A DNA stretch of 20,000 nucleotides from an uncultured virus (IMG/VR IMGVR_UViG_3300030376_004332) (taxonomy: Duplodnaviria > Heunggongvirae > Uroviricota > Caudoviricetes), in the IMG/VR virus record IMGVR_UViG_3300030376_004332; one strand, given 5' to 3'. A program made the translations under genes and the position numbers. The notes beneath the pieces are model-generated. The model searched no databases, had not been told where the DNA came from, and saw nothing but the letters and a program-made list of their open reading frames with translations. This document shows positions 2 to 19,998 of the stretch, one piece after another (within the stretch, counting starts at the first letter, position 1; each line of letters opens with the position of its first letter).

Positions 2-499
2 GATCATGTTATCGTAAATATACTACGTGCGAGGCAACTGACTGAAGCCATGAAAGTCCCCGACTTAGTCGCATACACTCAAGATCTAGAGGAGCAGGGT
101 AACTCTGTAGTTCTATTTGTTAACTTTAGAGATACTGTAAAAGCCCTTTGTGATCAGCTTAAATGCAAGTCAATAGAGGGGGGTCAGACAGTGGAAGAAC
201 GTCAAGCTGTAGTAGATGATTTCCAAAATGATGAGACAAGCATAGTCGTTGCTAACATTGCAGCAGGGGGTACTGGACTATCATTACACGATTGTAATGG
301 GAATAGACCAAGAGTTAGTTTGATCTGCCCTTCTTTCAATGCTAAAGACTACCTCCAAACTTTAGGTCGTATCCACCGTAATGGTGCAAAGTCTGACGCT
401 ATACAAAAAGTTTTAGTTACATCAGGGTCTATAGAAGAAAACGTCATAGACTCAATAGAAAGAAAAATACAAAACCTAACAGAACTACATGGAGTCTAA
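2..499 (+). CDS. SNF2-like (SF2) helicase, C-terminal HELICc domain; 5'-truncated by window edge
   Basis: Frame is open from position 2 (DHVIVNILRARQLTEA-MKVP), so the ATG at 50 is internal. Motifs VVLFVNF (IV), IEGGQTVEERQAVVDDFQ, ANIAAGGTGLSL (V) and QTLGRIHRNG (VI) are typical of SNF2 helicase C-termini. Confidence 0.9.
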   Translation, partial: DHVIVNILRARQLTEAMKVPDLVAYTQDLEEQGNSVVLFVNFRDTVKALCDQLKCKSIEGGQTVEERQAVVDDFQNDETSIVVANIAAGGTGLSLHDCNGNRPRVSLICPSFNAKDYLQTLGRIHRNGAKSDAIQKVLVTSGSIEENVIDSIERKIQNLTELHGV

Positions 500-1610
500 T
501 ACACCTGATCATAGTAGCAGAGGACACGCTCCTTTCTCACCATCAAGTCTCAAATACGTAGCAGGTTGTTCTGGTTACGAAGGTCGATCAGGTACAAACG
601 CTGCTGCCGAGAAAGGGACTCGTATACACGAAGCCTTAGAAGTTCGTGATCCCTCTGCCCTGCACGATGAAGACGAAGTCCTGATTTATGAAGCAATAGT
701 TGAGCAAGAGGAAGCATATATCACTAAGTTTGCTCAGGGTTTAGAGTACAAGGAAGAGAATGAGATAGTGTTGGATGTTGATCTTGATTCTACTAAAACA
801 TGGGGAACCTGTGATAGACTAATTACATTTGATAATAAAGCTATACTGGCAGATTACAAAACAGGTGTCAGTGAGATAGACCCTCCTAGAAAGAATTGGC
901 AAGCAAGGGCTTACACTGTGGGAGCTTTCCAAAGATACCCAGAGTTAGAAGAAATAACTTTTGTATTTTATATACCTGTTCGTAATGAAGTTTTAGAGGG
1001 TAAGTTTACAAGAGAAGAGTTACCTATTTTGGTGAAGCAAGTAGCTGACGTAATACGAAATGGCGAGAAAGTGCGTCCTCAATGGGATGGTGGCTACCCT
1101 GAAGCGGATGCACTTTCTCCTTCAGTTAACTGTAGATTCTGTAAGCATGAAGATTACTGCCCATCTTTAGGTGGTTTAGCCGTTGAGATAGTACAAAGAA
1201 TATCAGGAGAGTCTTTACCTAAAGAAGATATTCAAGACCCAACCGATCCTAGTACAGTAGAGCATCTTTATACGGTAGCTAAAGTAGTAGAAAATTGGGC
1301 TAAACGTATAAAGGAACGAGCGGTTACTTTAGCAAAAGAAGGTATGGAGTTTGAAAACTTAAAACTTAGGTCTATGGGAGCTACACGTAAGTGTACAGAT
1401 AATATAAAGTTAATAGACATAGCTAAAGAACACGATTTAGAACAAGAAGATTTACTCAATTTGATTAATATTCCCCTTAAAAAAGTAGCTAATGCTGTAG
1501 GGGATGCTGCTCCTAAAGGAGAAAAAGGAGAAAAATCAAGATCTTTTCTTGACGCTGTTGAAAACAATGGCATCATAGAGACATCGGAAGAAAGGTTTAC
1601 CCTTTCTTAA
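489..1610 (+). CDS. Cas4/RecB-like PD-(D/E)XK exonuclease (DUF2800-like phage protein) with probable Fe-S cluster
   Basis: HAPFSPSS..C, GTRIHEALE, WGTCD, LADYKTG and QARAY nuclease motifs; one N-terminal Cys plus C-terminal CRFCKHEDYC; context next to SNF2 helicase and PolA. Confidence 0.85.
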   Translation: MESNTPDHSSRGHAPFSPSSLKYVAGCSGYEGRSGTNAAAEKGTRIHEALEVRDPSALHDEDEVLIYEAIVEQEEAYITKFAQGLEYKEENEIVLDVDLDSTKTWGTCDRLITFDNKAILADYKTGVSEIDPPRKNWQARAYTVGAFQRYPELEEITFVFYIPVRNEVLEGKFTREELPILVKQVADVIRNGEKVRPQWDGGYPEADALSPSVNCRFCKHEDYCPSLGGLAVEIVQRISGESLPKEDIQDPTDPSTVEHLYTVAKVVENWAKRIKERAVTLAKEGMEFENLKLRSMGATRKCTDNIKLIDIAKEHDLEQEDLLNLINIPLKKVANAVGDAAPKGEKGEKSRSFLDAVENNGIIETSEERFTLS

Positions 1611-1650: not shown

Positions 1651-2307
1651 ATGGCAAATACAAAAGTAGTAGCAACTAAAAAAGAAGAACTAGCAGCACC
1701 AGTAGCTGCTCCAAGGCTTGCGATATCAGCAGAAGATATCGAAATCCCAAGACTCAATGTTATACAAGGGTCATCGGAAATTGATGGTGACGAGGGAGCC
1801 CTCGTTATTAATCGTACCCACACAATCATGCCCACAGCAGGAACACTTTCAGTGATCCCTATTACGGCAATGAAAGGGTGGGCAGAAAATGTGCCTTTTG
1901 GTTCAAATGATATAGCAAGGATTGCTTACAGCCTTGAAGAAAAAACAGCAATAGATTCTGACTCTGAGTTTGGTACTATTGAGTTTGCTGATATCACGCT
2001 GTTGATTCCAGAACCAAAAGATATTGGTGAAGACGCAGCAGATGCGTTCCCATTCCCAATCGGTGAAACGTCTTACGCAATGGGTAAAATCCATGTTCGT
2101 AAGGCAGCTTACAGAAACACATATAAAAGACTTGGTTTGTTCCAAGCAATGAACCCAGAGTCTCCTTTGTGTGCTAAACACTGGAAATTCCAAGCGGATC
2201 AAGCGACAGCTAATAGGGTCAGTTGGTACATACCACAAATGACCGTAACTAAAGAAGATACTGATGAACAAGTAGTTGAGTTCGTATCAAGAATTATACC
2301 TGCATAA
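1651..2307 (+). CDS. Probable phage single-stranded DNA-binding / recombination accessory protein
   Basis: 218 aa; N-terminal EDIEIPRLNVIQGSS resembles the D-I-x-I-P-R-L-x-x-x-Q start of phage SSB-like proteins; aromatic-rich C-terminal strands; occupies the usual slot between exonuclease and PolA. No acidic C-terminal tail, so the call is largely contextual. Confidence 0.5.
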   Translation: MANTKVVATKKEELAAPVAAPRLAISAEDIEIPRLNVIQGSSEIDGDEGALVINRTHTIMPTAGTLSVIPITAMKGWAENVPFGSNDIARIAYSLEEKTAIDSDSEFGTIEFADITLLIPEPKDIGEDAADAFPFPIGETSYAMGKIHVRKAAYRNTYKRLGLFQAMNPESPLCAKHWKFQADQATANRVSWYIPQMTVTKEDTDEQVVEFVSRIIPA

Positions 2308-9433: not shown

Positions 9434-12400
9434 TTAAACAAATGCGACTTCGTGCTCCGTTCCAGCACCATCTTGGAAGTACAACTTGTTATCTGATTTG
9501 GTGTAGAGTTTGCCTACATCTGCCGTTGCAGTTGGTGTAGTAGTTTCAGTCATAGCCATCGCCCCAGTTACTTTAGTCCCGTCAGATGTAGTAGTGAATT
9601 TAACTGCTTGGTTATAGGATAAGATAGAACCACCATCCTTGGTAAACTGCGCCATGGTATAGCCTTCCTCATCTTGGAAATATATAGCGGGGCCATTTGT
9701 TTGTAAGTGCAACCCACCTGTACCTAAGTCTCTTATGTAGCTAAGGCTTCCAGAGTGATAAATTGATAGATCGCTGCCAACTCCAAACTTGAGTTTAACA
9801 TTATCCATTAAGGCTATGTCTTTATCGAATTGAATTAGTCCTAATGAACCATCAAATGCCATGTATTGAGCAATGCCACCAGATCCATCATCTAATTCAA
9901 ATTTTATATCCCCATCATCAGTGTTATTTTTAATAATAAGGTTACCTGTGTTATTTGTAATAGCCCCATTAGATCCGTTATGAAATACCTGAAAATCATT
10001 GTCAGAACCCATCTGAAGCTGAACGCCATCAAGCAATCTCAATTCTTTTCCAAAGAGGATGTTTCCTGCGCTTCCATCCAAGTAAAAGTACTCAGTTGTT
10101 CCACCTGAACCATCGTCACACTTAAAGATAATGTCTTTATCGTTGGCGTTTTGTTCGATAACAAGATTGCCAGTCTGATTACGAATCTTTGAATCCACAC
10201 CATCGTGGTGCAGAGTCATGTCTGCGTCAGGGCCGAAGGCTAAATATGAATCATCTGGGAATACTGTAATAGGATCTCCTCCAGATAATGATCCATCTAA
10301 AAAGAAATAGGTTTCTTCTGCACCCGAACCATTGTCGCATCGGAAGATAATGTCTTTGTCAGTAGCACTGTTTTGGATAGTTAAATCACCAGTATCTTCG
10401 TTAGTTATTATGGAATTAGATCCATCGTGCAATATTCGTAAACCAGATGTACCATTAAAGTAAATACTCTTACCAGTAGAGACCATAACATCTTTTCGGG
10501 CTTGTATATCCTCAGAAGTTCCATCAATTCTAAAATATTCGGTAATTCCTGTAGATCCATCGTCCGATTCAAAAATTATTTTTCCACCATTACCTTTACT
10601 TCTAATATGTAAATTACGAGTATTTTCTTGTACGAAACTGTCAGCACCATCATTAAAGATTTGTAAGCCCTCACCTACACCACCAAACTGAAGTGTTGAG
10701 TTGTCTGGGAATACTGTCCTTGGGTGTGGTGCGCCTGATCCGTCTAAACGGAAATACTCCGTCATTCCATTACTGCCATTATCACAGAAAAATCTTATAT
10801 CAGCATCGTTGGCATCATTCTTAATATCTAAATGACCAGTATTGTTTTGAATTATAGAACTCGACCCGTCATGATAGATATTTAAATCATTACCTGTACC
10901 CCACCTTGCAATAACATTATCACTATGCCTTGTGTTGTAAGAAAATATTGTTAAGGCTTCACTGCCATCTACACGGAAATATTCGGCAGTTCCCCCAGAC
11001 CCATCATCACATTTAAATATAATATCACCATCATCAACAGTTTGTTGAATGTGTAAGTTACCAGTACCAGTTTGACTTATGAAACTGTTAGATCCGTCAT
11101 GGTGAATATCTAAATCAAGATCACTTCCAAACCTAAGTCTTCGATTATCTGGAAATATTGTGTACGTGTTCGTACCATCAGCAAGAGAGCCGTCTAAATA
11201 AAAATAAGTCAATAATGCTCCAGAACCGTCGTCGGACTGGAAATATATGTCAGCATCATTTGCTTTATTGGTAATATATAAAGGGCCAGTTTCATTTTCA
11301 ATTCTAGAAGAAACTCCAACACCATCATGGTAGATATTTAAATCTGCCCCTGTTCCGACTTTTAACCTAACGCCATCTAAAAGTTTAACGGATCTAGTAA
11401 AGATGCTTTGTGCTTCACTGCCATCTAAACGGAAGTATTCTGTTACACCGCCCGAAGCATCATCAGATTGAAAAACAATATCTTTGTCATCGTTGTGTTG
11501 CTGGATATAAAGGTCACCTGTTCCAGTTTGTTCTATGTAACTATTACTGCCGTCATGAGTAAATCTTAAATCTAAATTAGTTCCAAAAGACAACCTTGCG
11601 TTATCTGGAAAAACAGTAAAAGGATTACCCCCATCAATAGATCCATCTAAGTAGAAATAGGTTTCTACGCCACCAGAACCGTCATCAGATTGAAAAATGA
11701 TGTCTTTATTGTCTGTATAATTTATAATGTATAAATCGCCAGTATTGTTTTCAATTCTAGAATCTGTGGCATCGTGATAAATCCGAAGATCAAAATTACC
11801 TGAACNNNNNNNNNNTGTTTTTGGAGTCGAGTCAGTATTCAATGAACCATCTAAGAAGAAATAGGTTTCTGTTCCGCCACTGCCGTCGTCGCATTTGAAA
11901 GTAATGTCACCGTCATTTGCATCATTTATTATTTCTAAATTTCCAACAGTGTTGTAAATAAATGAATTTGCTGCATGATAAATTCTTAGGTCTTTAGAAT
12001 CTCCGAAAGCTGCAACTGATTGATCGGGGAATACAGTCCATGTATACCCACTGGCACTATAGGAACCATCTAAAAAGAAATAAGTACCGTTGCCGCCATT
12101 ACCATCATCAGATTGGAAGATGACATCCTTGTCGTTATCTCTGTTTCGGATATAAAGATCGCCCGTAGCATTATTGATCCATGAGTCAGTACCATCATGG
12201 TATACAAGAAGATCAGCGCCCGTTCCGAGAGCTAAATAAGAATTGTCTGGAAATATTGTAAACGGATTTCCGTCAGTGTTATTTGATCCATCTAAGTAGA
12301 AATAGGTTTCTTTGCCCCCGCTACCATCATCGCATTGGAAGATGATGTCGTTATCATCAGAGCCGTTAGTTATGTAAAAATTACCAGTTCCGTTAGCTAG

Positions 12401-15400
12401 ATATGTATCCGTACCATTATGGTATATATACAGATCTGAACCATCACCCATTGAGATGAAATCATTATCACCCCATTTAGTGTATGTATTACCACCTCCA
12501 GCAGAACTGCCATCTAAACGGAAGTATTCTGCTACTCCACCAGATCCGTCGTCACATCTAAATATAATATCTTTATCGTCAGCATTATTTTGAATATATA
12601 AATCGTTAGTTGAATTAGCGATGTATGTATTAGTCGAATCATGGTAAATACTAAAATCATGGCTTGAACCAAAAGATAAAAAAGAATTATCTGGGAAATT
12701 TGTAATAGGGTTACCAGAAGAAGCTGACCCATCTAAAAGGAAATAGGTTTCTACTCCACCACTACCATCATCAGATTGAAAAATAATATCACCATCATCT
12801 TGTTCATTTTTTATATATAAACTGCCTGTGTAATTTCTTATATAACTATCTCCACCACCATGATAAAGCTGGAAGTCATCTCCCGCCCCGAATATTAAAT
12901 GCTTACCGTCAGGAAATGATGTGTGTTGCAGTAATTTATTTCTTGTAACAGAACCATCTAGCTGAATGTAAGTAGCATTCCCTCCACTACCATCGTCACA
13001 TATTAATAAAACATCTTTGTCATCCGCAGTATTATGGATACGAAGATCACCAGTGTTATTCTGAAAACGTGTGTCTGTCCCATCGTGATATAAATAACAA
13101 TCGTTATCCGTTCCCAATGTAATTAAACTATTATCAGGGAATCTAATAATTGGGTTGCCTGATGACGCTGAACCATCTAGTAAGAAATAGGTTTCTACAC
13201 CTCCACTTCCGTCATCACTGCGGAATATTATATCCCCATCATCGGTATAATTAGTGATAAACAGGTCACCTGTCTTATTACCTATTTCACTAAGTGAACC
13301 AGTATGGACAAATTCTAAATCGTTACCTGATCCTAATGTTATTTTTCCATTATCTGGAAAATTTAGTTTACCGTCAGTTGTAAATGTTGCCCTGACTGCG
13401 TTATTTAAATAAAAGAGAAAATTATCACTAGATGAAACAGCAACACCACCAAGGCTAGTTGGAATAATTGAGGCATCGTAACTATCGTTACCTATTTTTA
13501 TTCCTTTGGCGTTTGCGCTTCCAACATCAATTTCAATACCTTGATTGAATGTCCAAGAATCTGTTGAATTAGTCCAAGCAATAGTATAATCACTAGCACC
13601 TTTAAGAGTAAAACCACCACCATCAGCCGTTGTGTCAGATGGGCTGGATACATTTCCGATTATAATGTTCTTGTCTTCGACTGCTAGGTTAGCTGTATCG
13701 ATGGTTGTTGTAGTTCCTTGAATAGTTAAATCGCCCTCAACCACTAATCCACCTGTAATTAAAGTGTCTCCATCCTTTTCAACTCTAAATCGATTTGTAC
13801 CATTGTCTTGTACTCTAAAAAGTGTATCTGTATCACCGTCTAAACCAGTGACATTAATTCTTAATCCACTTGTGGCGTTTGAGCTGTTAACATAAAGAAT
13901 AGGGGCAGTTCCTGTTAAGCTTAAATCTCCTGATACCGTAGCACCACTAGCAGTTGTCTCGAACTTTTTAGTTCCATTATGGAATAACTCTACAGCACCA
14001 CCATTAATGAATTGAGCCATATTGGTAGAGTCATCATTGTCTCTAATAACAACATCGTCTTCGGCTAAAATTTTAATGTCGTCTCCACCGTTCTCTATAA
14101 TTAAATCACCTGTATCATTTTCAATGCGAGTGTTTGTCCCATCGTGATAAATATCTAAATCGTTACTATCTCCTAACCTAACTCTACCGCTATTGGCAAG
14201 CATGAGGTGATTGCCTCCCATAACAAGGTTACCACCCATAGTGGCTCCTGTTGAGCTTGTTTCGAACTTTTTGGAGTTGTTGTAATATAACTCAACGGCT
14301 CCATCTTCAGTGGCTTCAAATAAAGTTTCAGACTGGTTTGCTGATAAAACTCTTAGGTTATTTGAAGCAATGACCAAAGCACCTGTGCCTTGATCTAGCA
14401 TTGTTGTGTTGGTTCCTGTATGGAAAATTTGAAAATCACTGCCATCTCCGAAAATAGCTTTTGAGTTGTCAGATAATTTTATGTTTTTATATGCACGGAT
14501 ATCGTTGTTAGCCCCAGAGATTTTTAAATAGTCAGTTACTCCACCAGAACCGTCATCGCATTGGAAATGAATATCTTTGTCATCTGTATAATTTATAACG
14601 TATAAATCGCCAGTATTGTTTTCAATTCTAGAATCTGTGGCATCGTGATAAATCCGAAGATCAAAATTACCTGAACCGAAAAGCAACTTAGAGTGGTCAG
14701 GGAATACTGTTTTTGGAGTCGAGTCAGTATTCAATGAACCATCTAAGAAGAAATAGGTTTCTACTCCGCCTGAACCATCGTCGGACTGGAAGATAATGTC
14801 CTTATCGTTTGAATCATTACGAATGTATAAATCACCAGTTAGGTTTTTTAAATAAGTGTCAGTGGCATTATGTTTTATAGTAAAGTCAGAATTAGTTCCA
14901 AAAGATAAAATAGAATCATCTGGAAAAACTGTGTAAGGCTCACCAGCAGAAGCAGATCCATCTAAGAAGAAATAGGTTTCTACTCCGCCTGAACCATCGT
15001 CAGATTGGAAGATGATATCTTTATCATCCGCAGAATTTTTAATGATTAAATTTCCTGTGTAGTTGTTTATAGTCGAATCAGTCCCATCATGTGAAATTCT
15101 TAAATCAAAATCACCTCCTATTTGTAATATTGAATTATCAGGAAACACTGTAATAGGATTACCAGAAGAAGCAGATCCATCTAAATAGAAATAAGTTTCA
15201 TTTCCCCCTGACCCATCGTCACAAGAAAAAACTATATCTTTGTCATCCGCTCTATTTTGTATGTTTAAGTTTCCAGTGTGATTTTTTATAAACGAATTAG
15301 TCCCGTCGTGTAAAATTCTGAGATCACCCGCACCTCCGCCTCCAAATTGCATAAACACATTATCAGGCACGTTGATTGAACTAGACGTTAAATCTAAAAC

Positions 15401-17293
15401 AGAACTATTTGCAACTGTCATTGCTAAATGTGTATCACCATCATAGTAAGAACGCATTTTAGTTTGCTTTGGTGTAGGCCCATCAAAGATTATGTAGTTG
15501 CCATTAGTTAATTGGATGTTGCCGCTGTCGACATGAAGTTTTTCTGCTGGACTTGTTGTTCCAATACCTACGTTACCATTTGCGATGACTCTTAACCTTT
15601 CGGTGCTGTTAGTCTCAATTTTGATATAATTATTACCCCCAGATCCCCATATTTTATTTGCTGTTCCGCCCCACTGAATAGCATAAGCTGAGTCTAACTC
15701 TATGTTTCCAGCAGATATGTCTAACTTTTGAGATGGAGCATCTGTTCCTATACCAACGTTGCCACTTCCGTCAACTATCAGAGCAGAATTACTACCATCA
15801 AGAACTTGCAAAGCATCGCCAGAACCATCGTTTCTAATTCTTACAGTTGGTTGTGTAGATGATGTGTTTTCATCTGTAAAATAAACAAGTGCTTCAGTGT
15901 TTGCTTGGGCTTCATTCCTTATAACTTGTAAACCCCTTGTTGTCGCTGTTTGCTTTATTTCTAATTTTGCAGAAGGGTTTGTTAACCCTATTCCTACATT
16001 ACCAGCAGAGTCAATGCGCATTCTTTCCGATGTACCTGTTACATCGATGACAAAATTGCCATCACCAAATGTAAGGTTATCAGAAGAGTTCATTGAGACA
16101 GCAGATATAACTCCACCACCTGCTGTTTCTGTTAAGAAGGATCTTGTGTTGTCTACACGAACATCTCCACCTTCAAGCTGAAGCATTGCTTGCCCTGCTG
16201 TTCCACCAATCGTTATGTTGCCACCGCCATGTATTCTTAATCTTTCGGTGTTAGATGTACCTAATATTAAACTACCGTTGTAATGATTGATTATTGAAGC
16301 TGCATCAGTCGAAGAATTATTAAATAATTTTAGACCTTGAGAAGCTGTTGCGCTTGACGCAATGACAATACCCTCAGTAGTTGAGCCATTAACTCTAACT
16401 GAACCCTTTGTCGTGGTCTTTAAATTTCCATCGAAGCGTATTACCTCACTACCTCCTGCCGTAATAGCTATATTATTAGCAGTGGGTCGGAATATTCCTG
16501 TGTCGCTATCTGCATTAAATCTAACGCTTGGAGATGAAGCAGTACCGTCACCATGATAAACAGTGTTAACTTTTAAATTACCTAACGTACCGCTAAAAAC
16601 TTCTGCGCTGTTTGTAGCCGCAGTTAAAAATGTAAAAGCACTTTCAGAATCGTCGTAACCAAAGAAACCTTTCTTTGCTGAACCATCGTAGTAATGAAAC
16701 TCTACGCCCCTATCTTTGTTGTCATCAGATGACGGTGCAGATACCCCACCTAGAGTAAACACTGGATCGGATACCGATACAGACGAACTCGAAAAAGTTG
16801 TCGTTGTCCCACTAACATCTAGGTCACCATTAACGGTTAACTTTCCAGTTACTGTAGCCCCTAAATTTGTTGTTTCTACTTTCTTTGCGTTATTGTAATA
16901 AAGATCTACAGAACCGTCTGGCGTAAAAATCGCCATGTTTTCTGAAGTACCTTTTGTTAGCCTTATGCTATCTCCATCTGTTTCGATTGTTAGCCTTCCT
17001 GTTCCTGTGTCAGATATTCTGCTCTGTGAACCATCGTGATAAAGCTGTAGGTCTCCATCTGCACCTAACTTTATTTTTGCGTTATCACTAAGTTCAAGTG
17101 AGTCATCGCTAGAATCCCACAACATGTAGCGAGAAGCAGTATCCCCGAAAAACTTTACGTCATGTCCTGCGTCATCAACCCCTATGTTGAGTGGGCCTGT
17201 TACAGTACCTCCTCCAGCTAGAGAAGAACCCGCAATCGTGGTTATTGATAAAGTGTCTAAGGACTGTGTTACAGTAAGTGTAGCATCTGACAT
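9434..17293 (-). CDS. Giant repetitive tail fibre / receptor-binding-like virion protein (2619 aa as assembled)
   Basis: G/D/S/T/N-rich; GNVGIG beta repeats, YNNxKKxETT and GDLxxxGTTTT modules typical of phage fibres; 20 copies of a DxDIxFxxDDGSGGxxxYFxLDGS repeat; TAATG coupling to the upstream gene. Contains a 10-N gap, so true length is uncertain. Confidence 0.8.
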   Translation of the reverse strand: MSDATLTVTQSLDTLSITTIAGSSLAGGGTVTGPLNIGVDDAGHDVKFFGDTASRYMLWDSSDDSLELSDNAKIKLGADGDLQLYHDGSQSRISDTGTGRLTIETDGDSIRLTKGTSENMAIFTPDGSVDLYYNNAKKVETTNLGATVTGKLTVNGDLDVSGTTTTFSSSSVSVSDPVFTLGGVSAPSSDDNKDRGVEFHYYDGSAKKGFFGYDDSESAFTFLTAATNSAEVFSGTLGNLKVNTVYHGDGTASSPSVRFNADSDTGIFRPTANNIAITAGGSEVIRFDGNLKTTTKGSVRVNGSTTEGIVIASSATASQGLKLFNNSSTDAASIINHYNGSLILGTSNTERLRIHGGGNITIGGTAGQAMLQLEGGDVRVDNTRSFLTETAGGGVISAVSMNSSDNLTFGDGNFVIDVTGTSERMRIDSAGNVGIGLTNPSAKLEIKQTATTRGLQVIRNEAQANTEALVYFTDENTSSTQPTVRIRNDGSGDALQVLDGSNSALIVDGSGNVGIGTDAPSQKLDISAGNIELDSAYAIQWGGTANKIWGSGGNNYIKIETNSTERLRVIANGNVGIGTTSPAEKLHVDSGNIQLTNGNYIIFDGPTPKQTKMRSYYDGDTHLAMTVANSSVLDLTSSSINVPDNVFMQFGGGGAGDLRILHDGTNSFIKNHTGNLNIQNRADDKDIVFSCDDGSGGNETYFYLDGSASSGNPITVFPDNSILQIGGDFDLRISHDGTDSTINNYTGNLIIKNSADDKDIIFQSDDGSGGVETYFFLDGSASAGEPYTVFPDDSILSFGTNSDFTIKHNATDTYLKNLTGDLYIRNDSNDKDIIFQSDDGSGGVETYFFLDGSLNTDSTPKTVFPDHSKLLFGSGNFDLRIYHDATDSRIENNTGDLYVINYTDDKDIHFQCDDGSGGVTDYLKISGANNDIRAYKNIKLSDNSKAIFGDGSDFQIFHTGTNTTMLDQGTGALVIASNNLRVLSANQSETLFEATEDGAVELYYNNSKKFETSSTGATMGGNLVMGGNHLMLANSGRVRLGDSNDLDIYHDGTNTRIENDTGDLIIENGGDDIKILAEDDVVIRDNDDSTNMAQFINGGAVELFHNGTKKFETTASGATVSGDLSLTGTAPILYVNSSNATSGLRINVTGLDGDTDTLFRVQDNGTNRFRVEKDGDTLITGGLVVEGDLTIQGTTTTIDTANLAVEDKNIIIGNVSSPSDTTADGGGFTLKGASDYTIAWTNSTDSWTFNQGIEIDVGSANAKGIKIGNDSYDASIIPTSLGGVAVSSSDNFLFYLNNAVRATFTTDGKLNFPDNGKITLGSGNDLEFVHTGSLSEIGNKTGDLFITNYTDDGDIIFRSDDGSGGVETYFLLDGSASSGNPIIRFPDNSLITLGTDNDCYLYHDGTDTRFQNNTGDLRIHNTADDKDVLLICDDGSGGNATYIQLDGSVTRNKLLQHTSFPDGKHLIFGAGDDFQLYHGGGDSYIRNYTGSLYIKNEQDDGDIIFQSDDGSGGVETYFLLDGSASSGNPITNFPDNSFLSFGSSHDFSIYHDSTNTYIANSTNDLYIQNNADDKDIIFRCDDGSGGVAEYFRLDGSSAGGGNTYTKWGDNDFISMGDGSDLYIYHNGTDTYLANGTGNFYITNGSDDNDIIFQCDDGSGGKETYFYLDGSNNTDGNPFTIFPDNSYLALGTGADLLVYHDGTDSWINNATGDLYIRNRDNDKDVIFQSDDGNGGNGTYFFLDGSYSASGYTWTVFPDQSVAAFGDSKDLRIYHAANSFIYNTVGNLEIINDANDGDITFKCDDGSGGTETYFFLDGSLNTDSTPKTXXXXSGNFDLRIYHDATDSRIENNTGDLYIINYTDNKDIIFQSDDGSGGVETYFYLDGSIDGGNPFTVFPDNARLSFGTNLDLRFTHDGSNSYIEQTGTGDLYIQQHNDDKDIVFQSDDASGGVTEYFRLDGSEAQSIFTRSVKLLDGVRLKVGTGADLNIYHDGVGVSSRIENETGPLYITNKANDADIYFQSDDGSGALLTYFYLDGSLADGTNTYTIFPDNRRLRFGSDLDLDIHHDGSNSFISQTGTGNLHIQQTVDDGDIIFKCDDGSGGTAEYFRVDGSEALTIFSYNTRHSDNVIARWGTGNDLNIYHDGSSSIIQNNTGHLDIKNDANDADIRFFCDNGSNGMTEYFRLDGSGAPHPRTVFPDNSTLQFGGVGEGLQIFNDGADSFVQENTRNLHIRSKGNGGKIIFESDDGSTGITEYFRIDGTSEDIQARKDVMVSTGKSIYFNGTSGLRILHDGSNSIITNEDTGDLTIQNSATDKDIIFRCDNGSGAEETYFFLDGSLSGGDPITVFPDDSYLAFGPDADMTLHHDGVDSKIRNQTGNLVIEQNANDKDIIFKCDDGSGGTTEYFYLDGSAGNILFGKELRLLDGVQLQMGSDNDFQVFHNGSNGAITNNTGNLIIKNNTDDGDIKFELDDGSGGIAQYMAFDGSLGLIQFDKDIALMDNVKLKFGVGSDLSIYHSGSLSYIRDLGTGGLHLQTNGPAIYFQDEEGYTMAQFTKDGGSILSYNQAVKFTTTSDGTKVTGAMAMTETTTPTATADVGKLYTKSDNKLYFQDGAGTEHEVAFV
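11712..11870. repeat. Near-exact direct repeat, copy A (copy B at 14583-14762)
   Basis: One mismatch over the called bases; copy A has 10 N where copy B has 31 nt. Confidence 0.9.
11806..11815. other. Assembly/scaffold gap (10 N)
   Basis: Run of ten n characters inside repeat copy A. Confidence 0.99.
14583..14762. repeat. Near-exact direct repeat, copy B (180 nt; copy A at 11712-11870)
   Basis: TCTGTATAATTTATAA...CTAAGAAGAAATAGGTTTCT is shared with copy A. Confidence 0.9.
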
Positions 17294-18816: not shown

Positions 18817-19998
18817 CTATGGAATACTAGATATAAACAAAGGAGACCAATATACGTTCTCATATGTTATTTGCTCAATGGTTTTTGAATTTACCCCAGC
18901 GGCACTAGGATCATAAGAAACGCCTAGTTTTACATAATAAGTAGCTGTTCTGTCATCTTCTGAGTGCGTATCTCTTTTAAAAGAAGCCATTGCTGCTGTC
19001 TCACTATTAGCTGTTAAAGATGACATCTTCCCAAAGTCGTTTTGCAACTGCTCTGCTGTTTTAGTTGGGTCAGCATCTCTATGAATGCTAATTGCATCAG
19101 CGGCTATCGTAGCTCCTGAAGCACTCCCCGTAGGTAGTGTAATTGACCACTTTAAAAAGAATGAACCATGAGTTTCAGCTATAGACATTGTCTTAGCTTT
19201 AACTACGGTATCTTTATCGTTAGAGTCTTTTAAAGCCGTAAAACCTGTAGGTTCGATTTCATTGATAAATCCAGCTCCTTGATCTTGGTTTTTTACACAT
19301 ACAAATCTATCTGCTGCAGTAGGACTATTAACTAAGGCAGGTAAATCATGTGTGTGGCCTATCCCAGAACTTGAACCTGAAGCTGATATTGGTGGTAAAA
19401 CTGCAGATGAACCGTTTCTTACATTTCCTGTTGTGCCTGTTACTTTTTTATTATCCTCTTCTGTGGTGTAGTCTTTTACTCCTCCTGTTACCCCTGTTAC
19501 TTTCTTCACAGAAGTATAACCTTTTACATCTGTTGTTTCGCCTTCTACAATATGAGAATGGTTATCTTTAACGTAGGTATGATTATGGTTCCCACCACTT
19601 ATAGTATAGCTATGAGTGTGTGAATCTCCATAAGAACCCCCACTTCCAGTTACAGGGCCTCCCGTAGAACCACTATGAGTATGTTCTCCCGTGCCTCCTG
19701 TATTTACTGAAGACGGGGTAGTCGCTGGGACAGCTTGTAAGTTGTTTGAACCAGTCCCCGCTAAGTGCCTATGGTTAGGCATAAGTAAACCATCTTCAGA
19801 AGAATCTCTAGCGACGTGCTTATGTTCTGGTATAAAAACCTCTCCATTAGTTACGTCGTGTTGATGTTGGGGGAGTGTTAAACCAGATACAGTAAACGTA
19901 CTACCCGTCTCGTTGCTTGTTTTGGTAGCTCCACTTGTAGGTATAGTGCCGTAGGACGTTTCTCCTGTTGTGTCTGCTTGGATAACAACATTAAAGTT
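18817..19998 (-). CDS. His-x-His-rich, G/T/S-rich virion protein (fibre/spike needle-like); 5'-truncated by window edge
   Basis: Frame stays open from 19998 to the ATG at 19782 (NFNVVIQADTTGETSYG...LPQHQH...IPEHKH...MPNHRH); eight HxH motifs in total. Confidence 0.7.
   Translation of the reverse strand, partial: NFNVVIQADTTGETSYGTIPTSGATKTSNETGSTFTVSGLTLPQHQHDVTNGEVFIPEHKHVARDSSEDGLLMPNHRHLAGTGSNNLQAVPATTPSSVNTGGTGEHTHSGSTGGPVTGSGGSYGDSHTHSYTISGGNHNHTYVKDNHSHIVEGETTDVKGYTSVKKVTGVTGGVKDYTTEEDNKKVTGTTGNVRNGSSAVLPPISASGSSSGIGHTHDLPALVNSPTAADRFVCVKNQDQGAGFINEIEPTGFTALKDSNDKDTVVKAKTMSIAETHGSFFLKWSITLPTGSASGATIAADAISIHRDADPTKTAEQLQNDFGKMSSLTANSETAAMASFKRDTHSEDDRTATYYVKLGVSYDPSAAGVNSKTIEQITYENVYWSPLFISSIP

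Follow-up and report, generated by a model that had tools for sequence, protein, structure and literature searches.

Invertase-driven switches of the tail fiber include Gin, Cin, and Min. For e14 Pin and a P2-like shufflon, recombination sites that are read through in frame inside fiber genes have been described (PMC4272514). Exchanges in the tail fiber and adhesin genes of T-even phages are reported to fall within or close to the glycine-rich motifs that are most conserved (Tetart et al. 1996, 1998, cited in PMC3157838), and the receptor-binding domains of tailspikes are described as flanked by conserved DNA motifs (Pas et al. 2023, PMC10408124), an idea also applied in a preprint (bioRxiv 10.64898/2026.05.12.724579). 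Relaxed homologous recombination is reported to make phage mosaics, with frequent 100-bp intragenic exchange (De Paepe et al. 2014, PMC3945230), and Chi sites are linked to replication of the whole genome in lambdoid phages (PMC12315714). Here we examined a 20,000-nucleotide (nt) stretch of DNA from an uncultured virus of the Caudoviricetes (IMG/VR record IMGVR_UViG_3300030376_004332), referred to below as the window. It holds a gene of 2619 amino acids (aa) for a fiber or adhesin-like protein with 20 repeat units, within which an original prediction, made from the sequence alone, had singled out a conserved quasi-palindromic 14-mer, AGAAATAGGTTTCT, as a candidate crossover or binding site. 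In an AF2 monomer model of three units (all-beta; pLDDT 93.9), each unit contains a beta-hairpin, IIFxx-DDGSGG-xETYFxLDG, in which DDGSGG is the turn joining two strands and the motif falls on the second strand.

Comparison of this gene with its relatives showed that phages of one gene pool swap fiber pieces of ~60 to 240 nt from one unit position to another while keeping the register. Exchange points were enriched around the hairpin but were staggered and occurred with or without the motif. The explanation that we favor on balance is a homology-based joint at which crossover and conversion occur in a modular phage fiber and of which the motif forms the most uniform stretch; the process is most likely ordinary recombination driven by homology and not the work of a dedicated switching enzyme.

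Motif copies and silent-site conservation

The 14-mer was exact at 10303, 11653, 11857, 12298, 13183, 14749, and 14968, with near-copies carrying one mismatch at 12739 and two at 15187, all on the plus strand, as originally listed. A search allowing up to three mismatches found 13 matches compared to 3.98 expected, and none of 200 shuffles reached 13, although this shuffle null ignores the protein repeat. The 24-nt block in which the motif was said usually to lie was exact at 6 of the 9 sites, and the 7-bp arms at 11651-11668 were confirmed. Nine of the 20 units read E-T-Y-F, and eight of those nine use GAA ACC TAT TTC, while ACC accounts for 22 of the 247 Thr codons across the whole gene. The pattern also matched at aa 600, but this extra match does not represent a unit and was left out of the count. 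The motif copies are not independent, as units 2 and 3 have 44 nt in common and units 3 and 11 have 55 nt in common. A near-duplicate of 14570-14762, interrupted by a 10-N scaffold gap (11806-11815), contains the copy at 11857; this near-duplicate may be a recent duplication or an assembly echo, so that the 11857 copy is possibly an echo. Contigs from two runs link 11741 to 12230, and the unit order in the window is for this reason possibly one path among strain variants.

Silent-site conservation was then measured, with offsets counted along the coding strand, in nt or, where stated, in codons, and with the first base of the Tyr codon taken as the origin. In 17 related genes (one per cluster, window excluded), the Thr of the anchor E-T pair was ACC in 64 of 69 units compared to 11 of 61 for E-T pairs at other places in these genes (P = 2e-19, with units treated as independent). 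With the window included, GAA was used before this Thr in 78/78 cases at the anchor and 41/70 elsewhere, and GTA was used before the Glu in 25/26 and 16/58 cases, respectively. Across 149 dereplicated units, the excess silent homozygosity of codons -3 to +4 was 0.46, 0.70, 0.44, 0.05, 0.35, 0.27, 0.55, and 0.21; outside these codons, which form the sole silent-conserved block of the unit, merely three isolated columns reached 0.3. The majority spelling of the block in the motif-bearing pool is A GAA ACC TAY TTC YNN TTA GAY, and a separate lock, TTC CGT TTA, was present in an xEYFR type of unit. The lock was unaffected by the upstream likeness of two units. Codons of DDGSGG vary freely, as had been claimed, and are at background (excess silent homozygosity of 0.10 or less).

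Per-site silent conservation thus exceeded expectation at codons -3 to +4, and conservation at the DNA level exceeded codon bias and context at GAA, ACC, and the wobble A. The original prediction of fixed silent sites stood for these three; the preference for TTC was partly due to codon context, and the Tyr wobble was free in relatives. Plain codon bias with neighboring-codon context was ruled out for GAA, ACC, and the wobble A and was accepted in part for TTC, which occurred before CGN-Arg in 20/23 cases in the background. TTC before Phe was also high in motif-less pools (46/50 versus 28/113), which would fit avoidance of a run of nine T residues. Avoidance of a restriction site was ruled out (GAAACA, 211; GAAACT, 204; GAAACG, 74; GAAACC, 150; five pool genomes), and an overlapping gene over the motif copies was rejected, as no long open reading frame (ORF) was present there in another frame.

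The palindrome was less well conserved than the codons. Perfect 5-bp arms were present in 38 of 86 ETY units and the exact 14-mer in 35 of 86, and the outer arm pair showed no covariation in these units. Because the Tyr wobble, which is part of one arm, was near background and free in relatives, the palindrome is not the conserved entity; the C of ACC, which is the most unusual base, is part of the core and not of the arms. The quasi-palindrome would then be largely a by-product of spelling E-T-Y-F as GAA ACC TAT TTC. A small hairpin was predicted in each of four folded copies, and only the 11653 copy folded better than shuffles (z of -2.5 and -3.1, compared to 0.23 to -0.80 for the three others).

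Gene pools and exchange points

The repeat was detected at 71 viral and 76 metagenome loci in scans that covered the best 80 stretches of each kind. Extraction from 146 of 150 loci, with two extra loci and the window included, gave 150 repeat genes in 111 clusters. A first grouping of the loci by ACC usage was circular; sharing of exact 31-mers recovered nearly the same motif group in the form of an isolated component with 24 loci, next to another with 100. One locus, L100, was put into the motif pool by hand for later analyses. Homologues of window genes were carried by 20 of the 23 other motif-pool loci, with core genes showing 38 to 90% protein identity to those of the window and one locus (L075) being near-identical. 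No homologue of window genes was found at L009, L102, or L110 or at any locus of motif-less pools 0 and 2 to 5. Judged from these sequences, the motif pool brings together a single phage family and one or more other backbones.

No tracts of exact 31-mers were common to the motif-bearing pool and the large motif-less pool. A few tracts of 62 to 89 nt linked the motif group as first drawn with L099, L162, L033, and L116, and represent rare leakage between pools; L116 was later placed inside the motif pool. Spelling of the joint also differed between groups. A high-GC sister lineage, whose polymerase is 60% identical, favors GAG ACT TAC, with ACT at 10/12 Thr codons compared to 2/17 elsewhere (six near-clonal loci), and in other pools the Thr codon of ETY is ACA, ACT, or ACG, with no significant lock. 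The use of other or variable codons for ETYF in other phage pools had been named in the original prediction as an observation that would refute it, and this observation holds in part. Motif copies lie on one strand per record in five pool genomes (G001 to G005), and in the complete genome among them (G002), all 13 motif matches were at fiber-gene coordinates.

The fiber gene of the window contains tracts of 62 to 240 nt that are common to other phages at 91 to 100% identity, often at other unit positions. For example, units 3-4 of the window match units 9-10 of L010 over 192 nt at 96% identity, from -6 to -40. The median tract length in the motif pool was 104 nt, and 64 of 225 cross-cluster tracts fell outside the repeats. 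Compared to a null of simulated uniform in-register crossovers, the interval from -12 to +19 contained 26 of 72 tract starts (2.2-fold; P = 5e-5) and 20 of 72 tract ends (1.5-fold; P = 0.04), the ends having been deduplicated by sequence and not being fully independent events. Starts were also enriched 2.0-fold at +20 to +50 and ends 4.0-fold at -60 to -46. Five motif-less pools analyzed together had 58 of 116 starts (3.7-fold) and 30 of 110 ends (1.8-fold) in the same zone. The breakpoint enrichment for which the original prediction called was therefore detected at the motif at 1.5- to 2.2-fold, though relatives without the motif showed the same hot zone. Between -16 and +19, 53 distinct tract ends were staggered, and GAAACC was present in neither partner at 26 of these, in one partner at 10, and in both at 17.

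Within near-identical tracts, silent differences were more frequent across the hairpin (0.11 to 0.15) than in the rest of the unit (0.073), which is the expected trace of short conversions from other units. In shared tracts, 19 of 171 motif codons carried silent differences compared to 138 of 1890 codons elsewhere, and the values by codon were 6/20 for Tyr, 10/32 for Gly at +5, 0/21 for Val at -3, and 0/22 for Glu at -2. DDGSGG was the least shared part of the unit.

Natural variant joints were examined by aligning contigs of four runs from four studies (4 of 21 runs) to the gene, covering 15 of 35 joints and 12 of 34 between-letter rows; one of these runs, X1, is possibly the window's own source. 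Among the 23 distinct joints listed, 10 were in register with the unit, all within -33 to +37, and none of these 10 linked two motif-bearing units. One joint, which drops 911 nt (four units), was present in three studies and has 8 new letters in place of the motif (letters from two of the runs). Another, in two studies, had its crossover within 8 letters encoding L-D-G, with a short side of only 31 letters, and a further joint, also in two studies, was in mid-unit away from the motif. Tracts, tract ends, and natural joints together showed that the motif lies where modules are exchanged in frame and the array expands and contracts, in agreement with the original prediction.

Recombination machinery and explanations for the motif

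A family scan of the window confirmed that no recombinase is present there. PF00589 was found in 1 of 10 pool records and PF00239 in none, and both were absent from the two records of at least 90% completeness. No recombinase family was detected in a PHROGs scan of 44 ORFs or pieces of G002 or in a Pfam scan of G002 and a second pool genome, G003, and no reverse transcriptase family was detected by Pfam in 41 ORFs of G002 and 38 of 43 ORFs of G003 of at least 90 aa. Family scans of G002 did find an exonuclease, a helicase, and a Holliday junction resolvase; the last appears from its sequence to be RuvC-like and has a 59% identical homologue in G003. A 218-aa protein of the window is probably a single-stranded DNA-binding protein (SSB), with weak Foldseek matches to gp32-type SSBs (E values of 0.014 to 0.046, none at 0.001 or below). 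It is encoded between the exonuclease and the polymerase, its Atlas neighbors carry PF23977 (12 to 32% of members), and in fold it also weakly matches a chain of a PhiC31 complex of integrase and recombination directionality factor. The sole integrase is a tyrosine integrase (L167 1411-2529, in G006) located about 7 kb from the fiber with a 62-aa ORF nearby; no relative of it was found among the genome contigs searched, and a tRNA beside it was looked for and none was found. The locus of the phage that carries it has no match to the family core genes, yet this phage has the common fiber pool and motif and is probably a temperate phage of the same host.

In the mechanism that we favor, general recombination would pair units via short identity, and the phage exonuclease, the SSB-like protein, the RuvC-like resolvase, and/or host RecA are the proposed machinery. 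Hairpin recombinants would survive, because frame and fold are kept, and would alter host recognition. Repeated exchange and micro-conversion would spread the block to all units while retaining the pool's majority spelling, and a spelling that matched the majority would ease the next exchange. The direct orientation of the nine window copies, all on one strand, lacks the geometry of inversion, as had been pointed out, and would yield gain, loss, or replacement of units.

Several observations weigh against this explanation. Five other pools share the hot zone and none has a significant Thr-codon lock (P values of 0.08 to 0.95), so exchange alone does not always homogenize. DDGSGG lies within the exchange zone yet is diverse and at background. 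Conservation alternates, with E, T, F, and L high and Y and +2 low, and there is no smooth fade, which looks like base-specific selection. At 90% likeness, other phages in the pool may have supplied some of the contig joints, and the tract ends do not all count as independent events. No annealing recombinase was identified, and family scans of G002 and G003 revealed no Rad52-like recombinase.

The alternating, base-specific pattern and the lock, which is far tighter in the motif pool than in those other pools that share its hot zone, would be expected if a sequence-specific stimulator acted on top of homologous recombination, an unlikely explanation that is prompted by the tightness of the lock in this family alone. 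A host or phage protein would recognize about AGAAACC-TAY-TTC as a signal similar to Chi, as a site for nicking, or as a sequence at which the RuvC-like resolvase prefers to cleave, and exchanges would start or finish at the motif, with motif-bearing copies favored as donors or as resolvable junctions. Holliday junction resolvases are reported to be capable of sequence dependence (PMC7078210), and the G002 resolvase has its homologue in G003. The wobble A is retained under several amino acids, and the motif also occurs at L009 and L110, which lack a core-gene match and, in the case of G006, carry an integrase; this hints at a common host. The doubtful proposal that such a protein targets recombination to the hairpin through a gene-internal Chi-like or resolvase-guided signal is countered by the confinement of the G002 matches to fiber-gene coordinates, unlike Chi sites, by the 26 of 53 nearby tract ends without the motif, by the different spelling in a sister lineage of the same family, and by silent differences at motif codons that were not lower overall in shared tracts. 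If it were true, the diversification signal would need no site-specific recombinase and would be common to unrelated phages of one host. Slightly less probable still is a protein-level sweep with hitchhiking, in which E-T-Y-F arose once as GAA ACC, was favored for fold or function, and was spread by short conversions, with the silent letters as passengers that have yet to decay. Glu at -2 was present in 80 of 149 motif-pool units compared to 88 of 464 others, ACC was tied to a preceding GAA (78/85, versus 12/36 without Glu), and founder spellings differ by lineage, all as a sweep would predict; against it, C should quickly decay to T where the pool is AT-rich, but ACC and TTC have lasted while TAT/TAC and the +2 codon occur in many mixed combinations, and the xEYFR type has its own lock.

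The local silent constraint and the small hairpins predicted in four copies could also reflect a protein-binding site or mRNA element without a recombination role, such as an operator array, a hairpin, or a folding pause signal in each unit. This is improbable, since only the 11653 copy folded better than shuffles, just 8 of the 20 units carry the motif, 38 of 86 units had perfect arms, the outer pair did not covary, and no copy lay outside fiber genes in G002. The least probable explanation is a crossover site for a dedicated tyrosine or serine recombinase that deletes or integrates modules between direct copies. The arm-core-arm appearance and common orientation prompted this idea, and it draws further on an internal duplicate that starts exactly at the motif edge, on several tracts that start at -7 or -6, and on the integrase of one pool member. 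Tract starts as far as +10 and ends as far back as -14 are incompatible with one core, no listed in-register joint connects two copies, recombinase families were nearly absent from the pool records and missing from both near-complete ones, and the G006 integrase is distant from the fiber. The 5-bp arms are short compared to the 11 to 13 bp of known recombinase sites. With breakpoints that are staggered and mostly independent of the motif, a palindrome that is often broken, a hot zone equal or stronger in relatives without the motif, and the C of ACC in the core, the site-specific reading of the original prediction is largely refuted.

Features of the window and comparison with known systems

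The window is a phage fragment that encodes a helicase, a DUF2800 exonuclease, a family A polymerase, a primase-like protein, and an amidase ahead of the minus-strand 2619-aa gene, and the features discussed are listed in Table 1.

Table 1. Coordinates of the fiber gene, its repeat joints, and candidate recombination genes in the window
Feature	Coordinates	Strand	Remarks
2619-aa fiber or adhesin-like virion gene	9434..17293	-	20 units of about 73-77 aa; tract mosaic; PHROG/tail fiber matches
Repeat array 1, units 1-4	14500..15260	-	Tyr anchors 15193, 14974, 14755, 14530; bounds approximate
Repeat array 2, units 5-20	9840..13260	-	Tyr anchors 13189 to 9865; bounds approximate
Unit 1 joint	15177..15200	-	ETYF with ACT; 2 mismatches
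Unit 2 joint	14958..14981	-	Exact 24-nt block; 44 nt same as unit 3
Unit 3 joint	14739..14762	-	Exact block; begins 192-nt module common to L010 at 96%
Unit 5 joint	13173..13196	-	14-mer exact; block with 1 change
Unit 7 joint	12729..12752	-	14-mer with 1 mismatch
Unit 9 joint	12288..12311	-	Exact block
Unit 11 joint	11847..11870	-	Exact block; identity with unit 3 starts exactly at motif 5' edge
Unit 12 joint	11643..11668	-	Exact block, 7-bp arms; variant joints 11665 (X4, X5, X7) and 11643 (X1, X4)
Unit 18 joint	10293..10316	-	Exact block
Near-duplicate of unit 3-4 module	11712..11870	-	10-N scaffold gap at 11806-11815
DUF2800/PD-(D/E)XK exonuclease	489..1610	+	Candidate end-resection enzyme
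218-aa protein, probably OB-fold SSB	1651..2307	+	Candidate part of recombination machinery; AF2 pLDDT 84.8

The 2619-aa gene matched PHROG families of unknown function and of tail fibers and, weakly, annotated phage tail or fiber proteins; these family labels and the size of the gene suggest that the protein is a fiber. The repeat had no Pfam family over cutoff, no NCBIfam match, no PDB sequence match, no named Atlas cluster at 0.9 or more, and no Foldseek match at an E value of 0.001 or below; its best VIA match (Z of 3.8 to the Bdellovibrio fiber 8ond) was not significant. The missing matches show neither kinship nor a new fold. No relatives of the repeat were found among the genome contigs searched, and the DNA polymerase was less than 60% identical to those of cultured phages, with 26 to 28% identity among the matches listed.

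Several shared tracts of the non-repeat N-terminal part of the gene stop at the same positions, 16019 and 16514. Those at 16019 are shared with L003, L029, and L073. The common ends lie near an E-R-M-R-I motif and represent a second kind of joint. A virion-region ORF at 18817-19998 has no family match and contains several G-x-H-x-H motifs, which we take to be of the kind found in fiber tips. In G002, two long tandem fiber genes (L010 1117-13426) are both built of these repeats and both bear the motif; the complete record of this genome was opened inside the second of them, and several other records also end in the fiber region. Giant ORFs at L169 3-15548 (G002; >5000 aa) and L173 445-9633 (G003; 3063 aa) match DUF7178 and HATPase, or ART-PolyVal, and encode polyvalent-type proteins. 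The whole records of G002 to G006 strongly avoid CCWGG (16 versus 232 expected), CTGCAG (0 versus 99), GGATCC, CCATGG, and the asymmetric GCAGGC (1 versus 44), a fingerprint of host restriction systems that could help to find the host.

These data provide a quantitative natural case in which lytic phages rebuild long, putatively host-recognizing fibers without a dedicated recombinase, and shuffling at the level of units, within gene pools, is seen across about 150 related loci. The DNA signature that one pool carries at the joint can be used as a marker of pool, and probably of host, membership, and the pools with a hot zone but no lock make it testable whether motifs are kept for the sake of recombination or are merely used by it.

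Invertase switches, as described in PMC4272514, depend on sites in inverted orientation, on a neighboring invertase, and on a single fixed crossover, and the present joint shows none of the three. Unlike the sites of tyrosine recombinases (lox, dif, or shufflon), the joint has no fixed core with a site in both partners, and its arms are not conserved. It also differs from a diversity-generating retroelement, as no reverse transcriptase family was found in the scanned ORFs of G002 and G003. Like Chi as presented in PMC12315714, the motif is short and oriented and could bias the start of exchanges; unlike Chi, it is confined to fiber repeats and is unneeded at breakpoints. The intragenic exchanges of ~100 bp between diverged sequences reported in PMC3945230 resemble the tracts found here, with their median of 104 nt, although the family scans of G002 and G003 revealed no Rad52-like recombinase.

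The tailspike motifs of PMC10408124 are likewise short DNA conserved above its surroundings in lytic phages and proposed as hot spots of homologous recombination. They are given there as 20 to 95 nt long, 63 to 81% identical, and at domain borders, whereas the element here is about 24 nt long and lies inside every repeat, and its breakpoints were mapped. As in the accounts of T-even adhesins cited above, the gene is a mosaic of segments common to other phages in which swaps would reassort recognition segments, exchange points are enriched near a conserved motif but staggered, and, in the motif pool, conservation of the motif DNA is above that of its surroundings. The present fibers differ from T-even adhesins in having no significant sequence or fold match to solved fibers, genes with as many as about 20 homologous units in tandem, exchange from one unit position to another, and, in one pool, a measured silent-site lock. 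This family of marine phages is thus most likely a new example of a known way in which phages remodel their host-recognition proteins.

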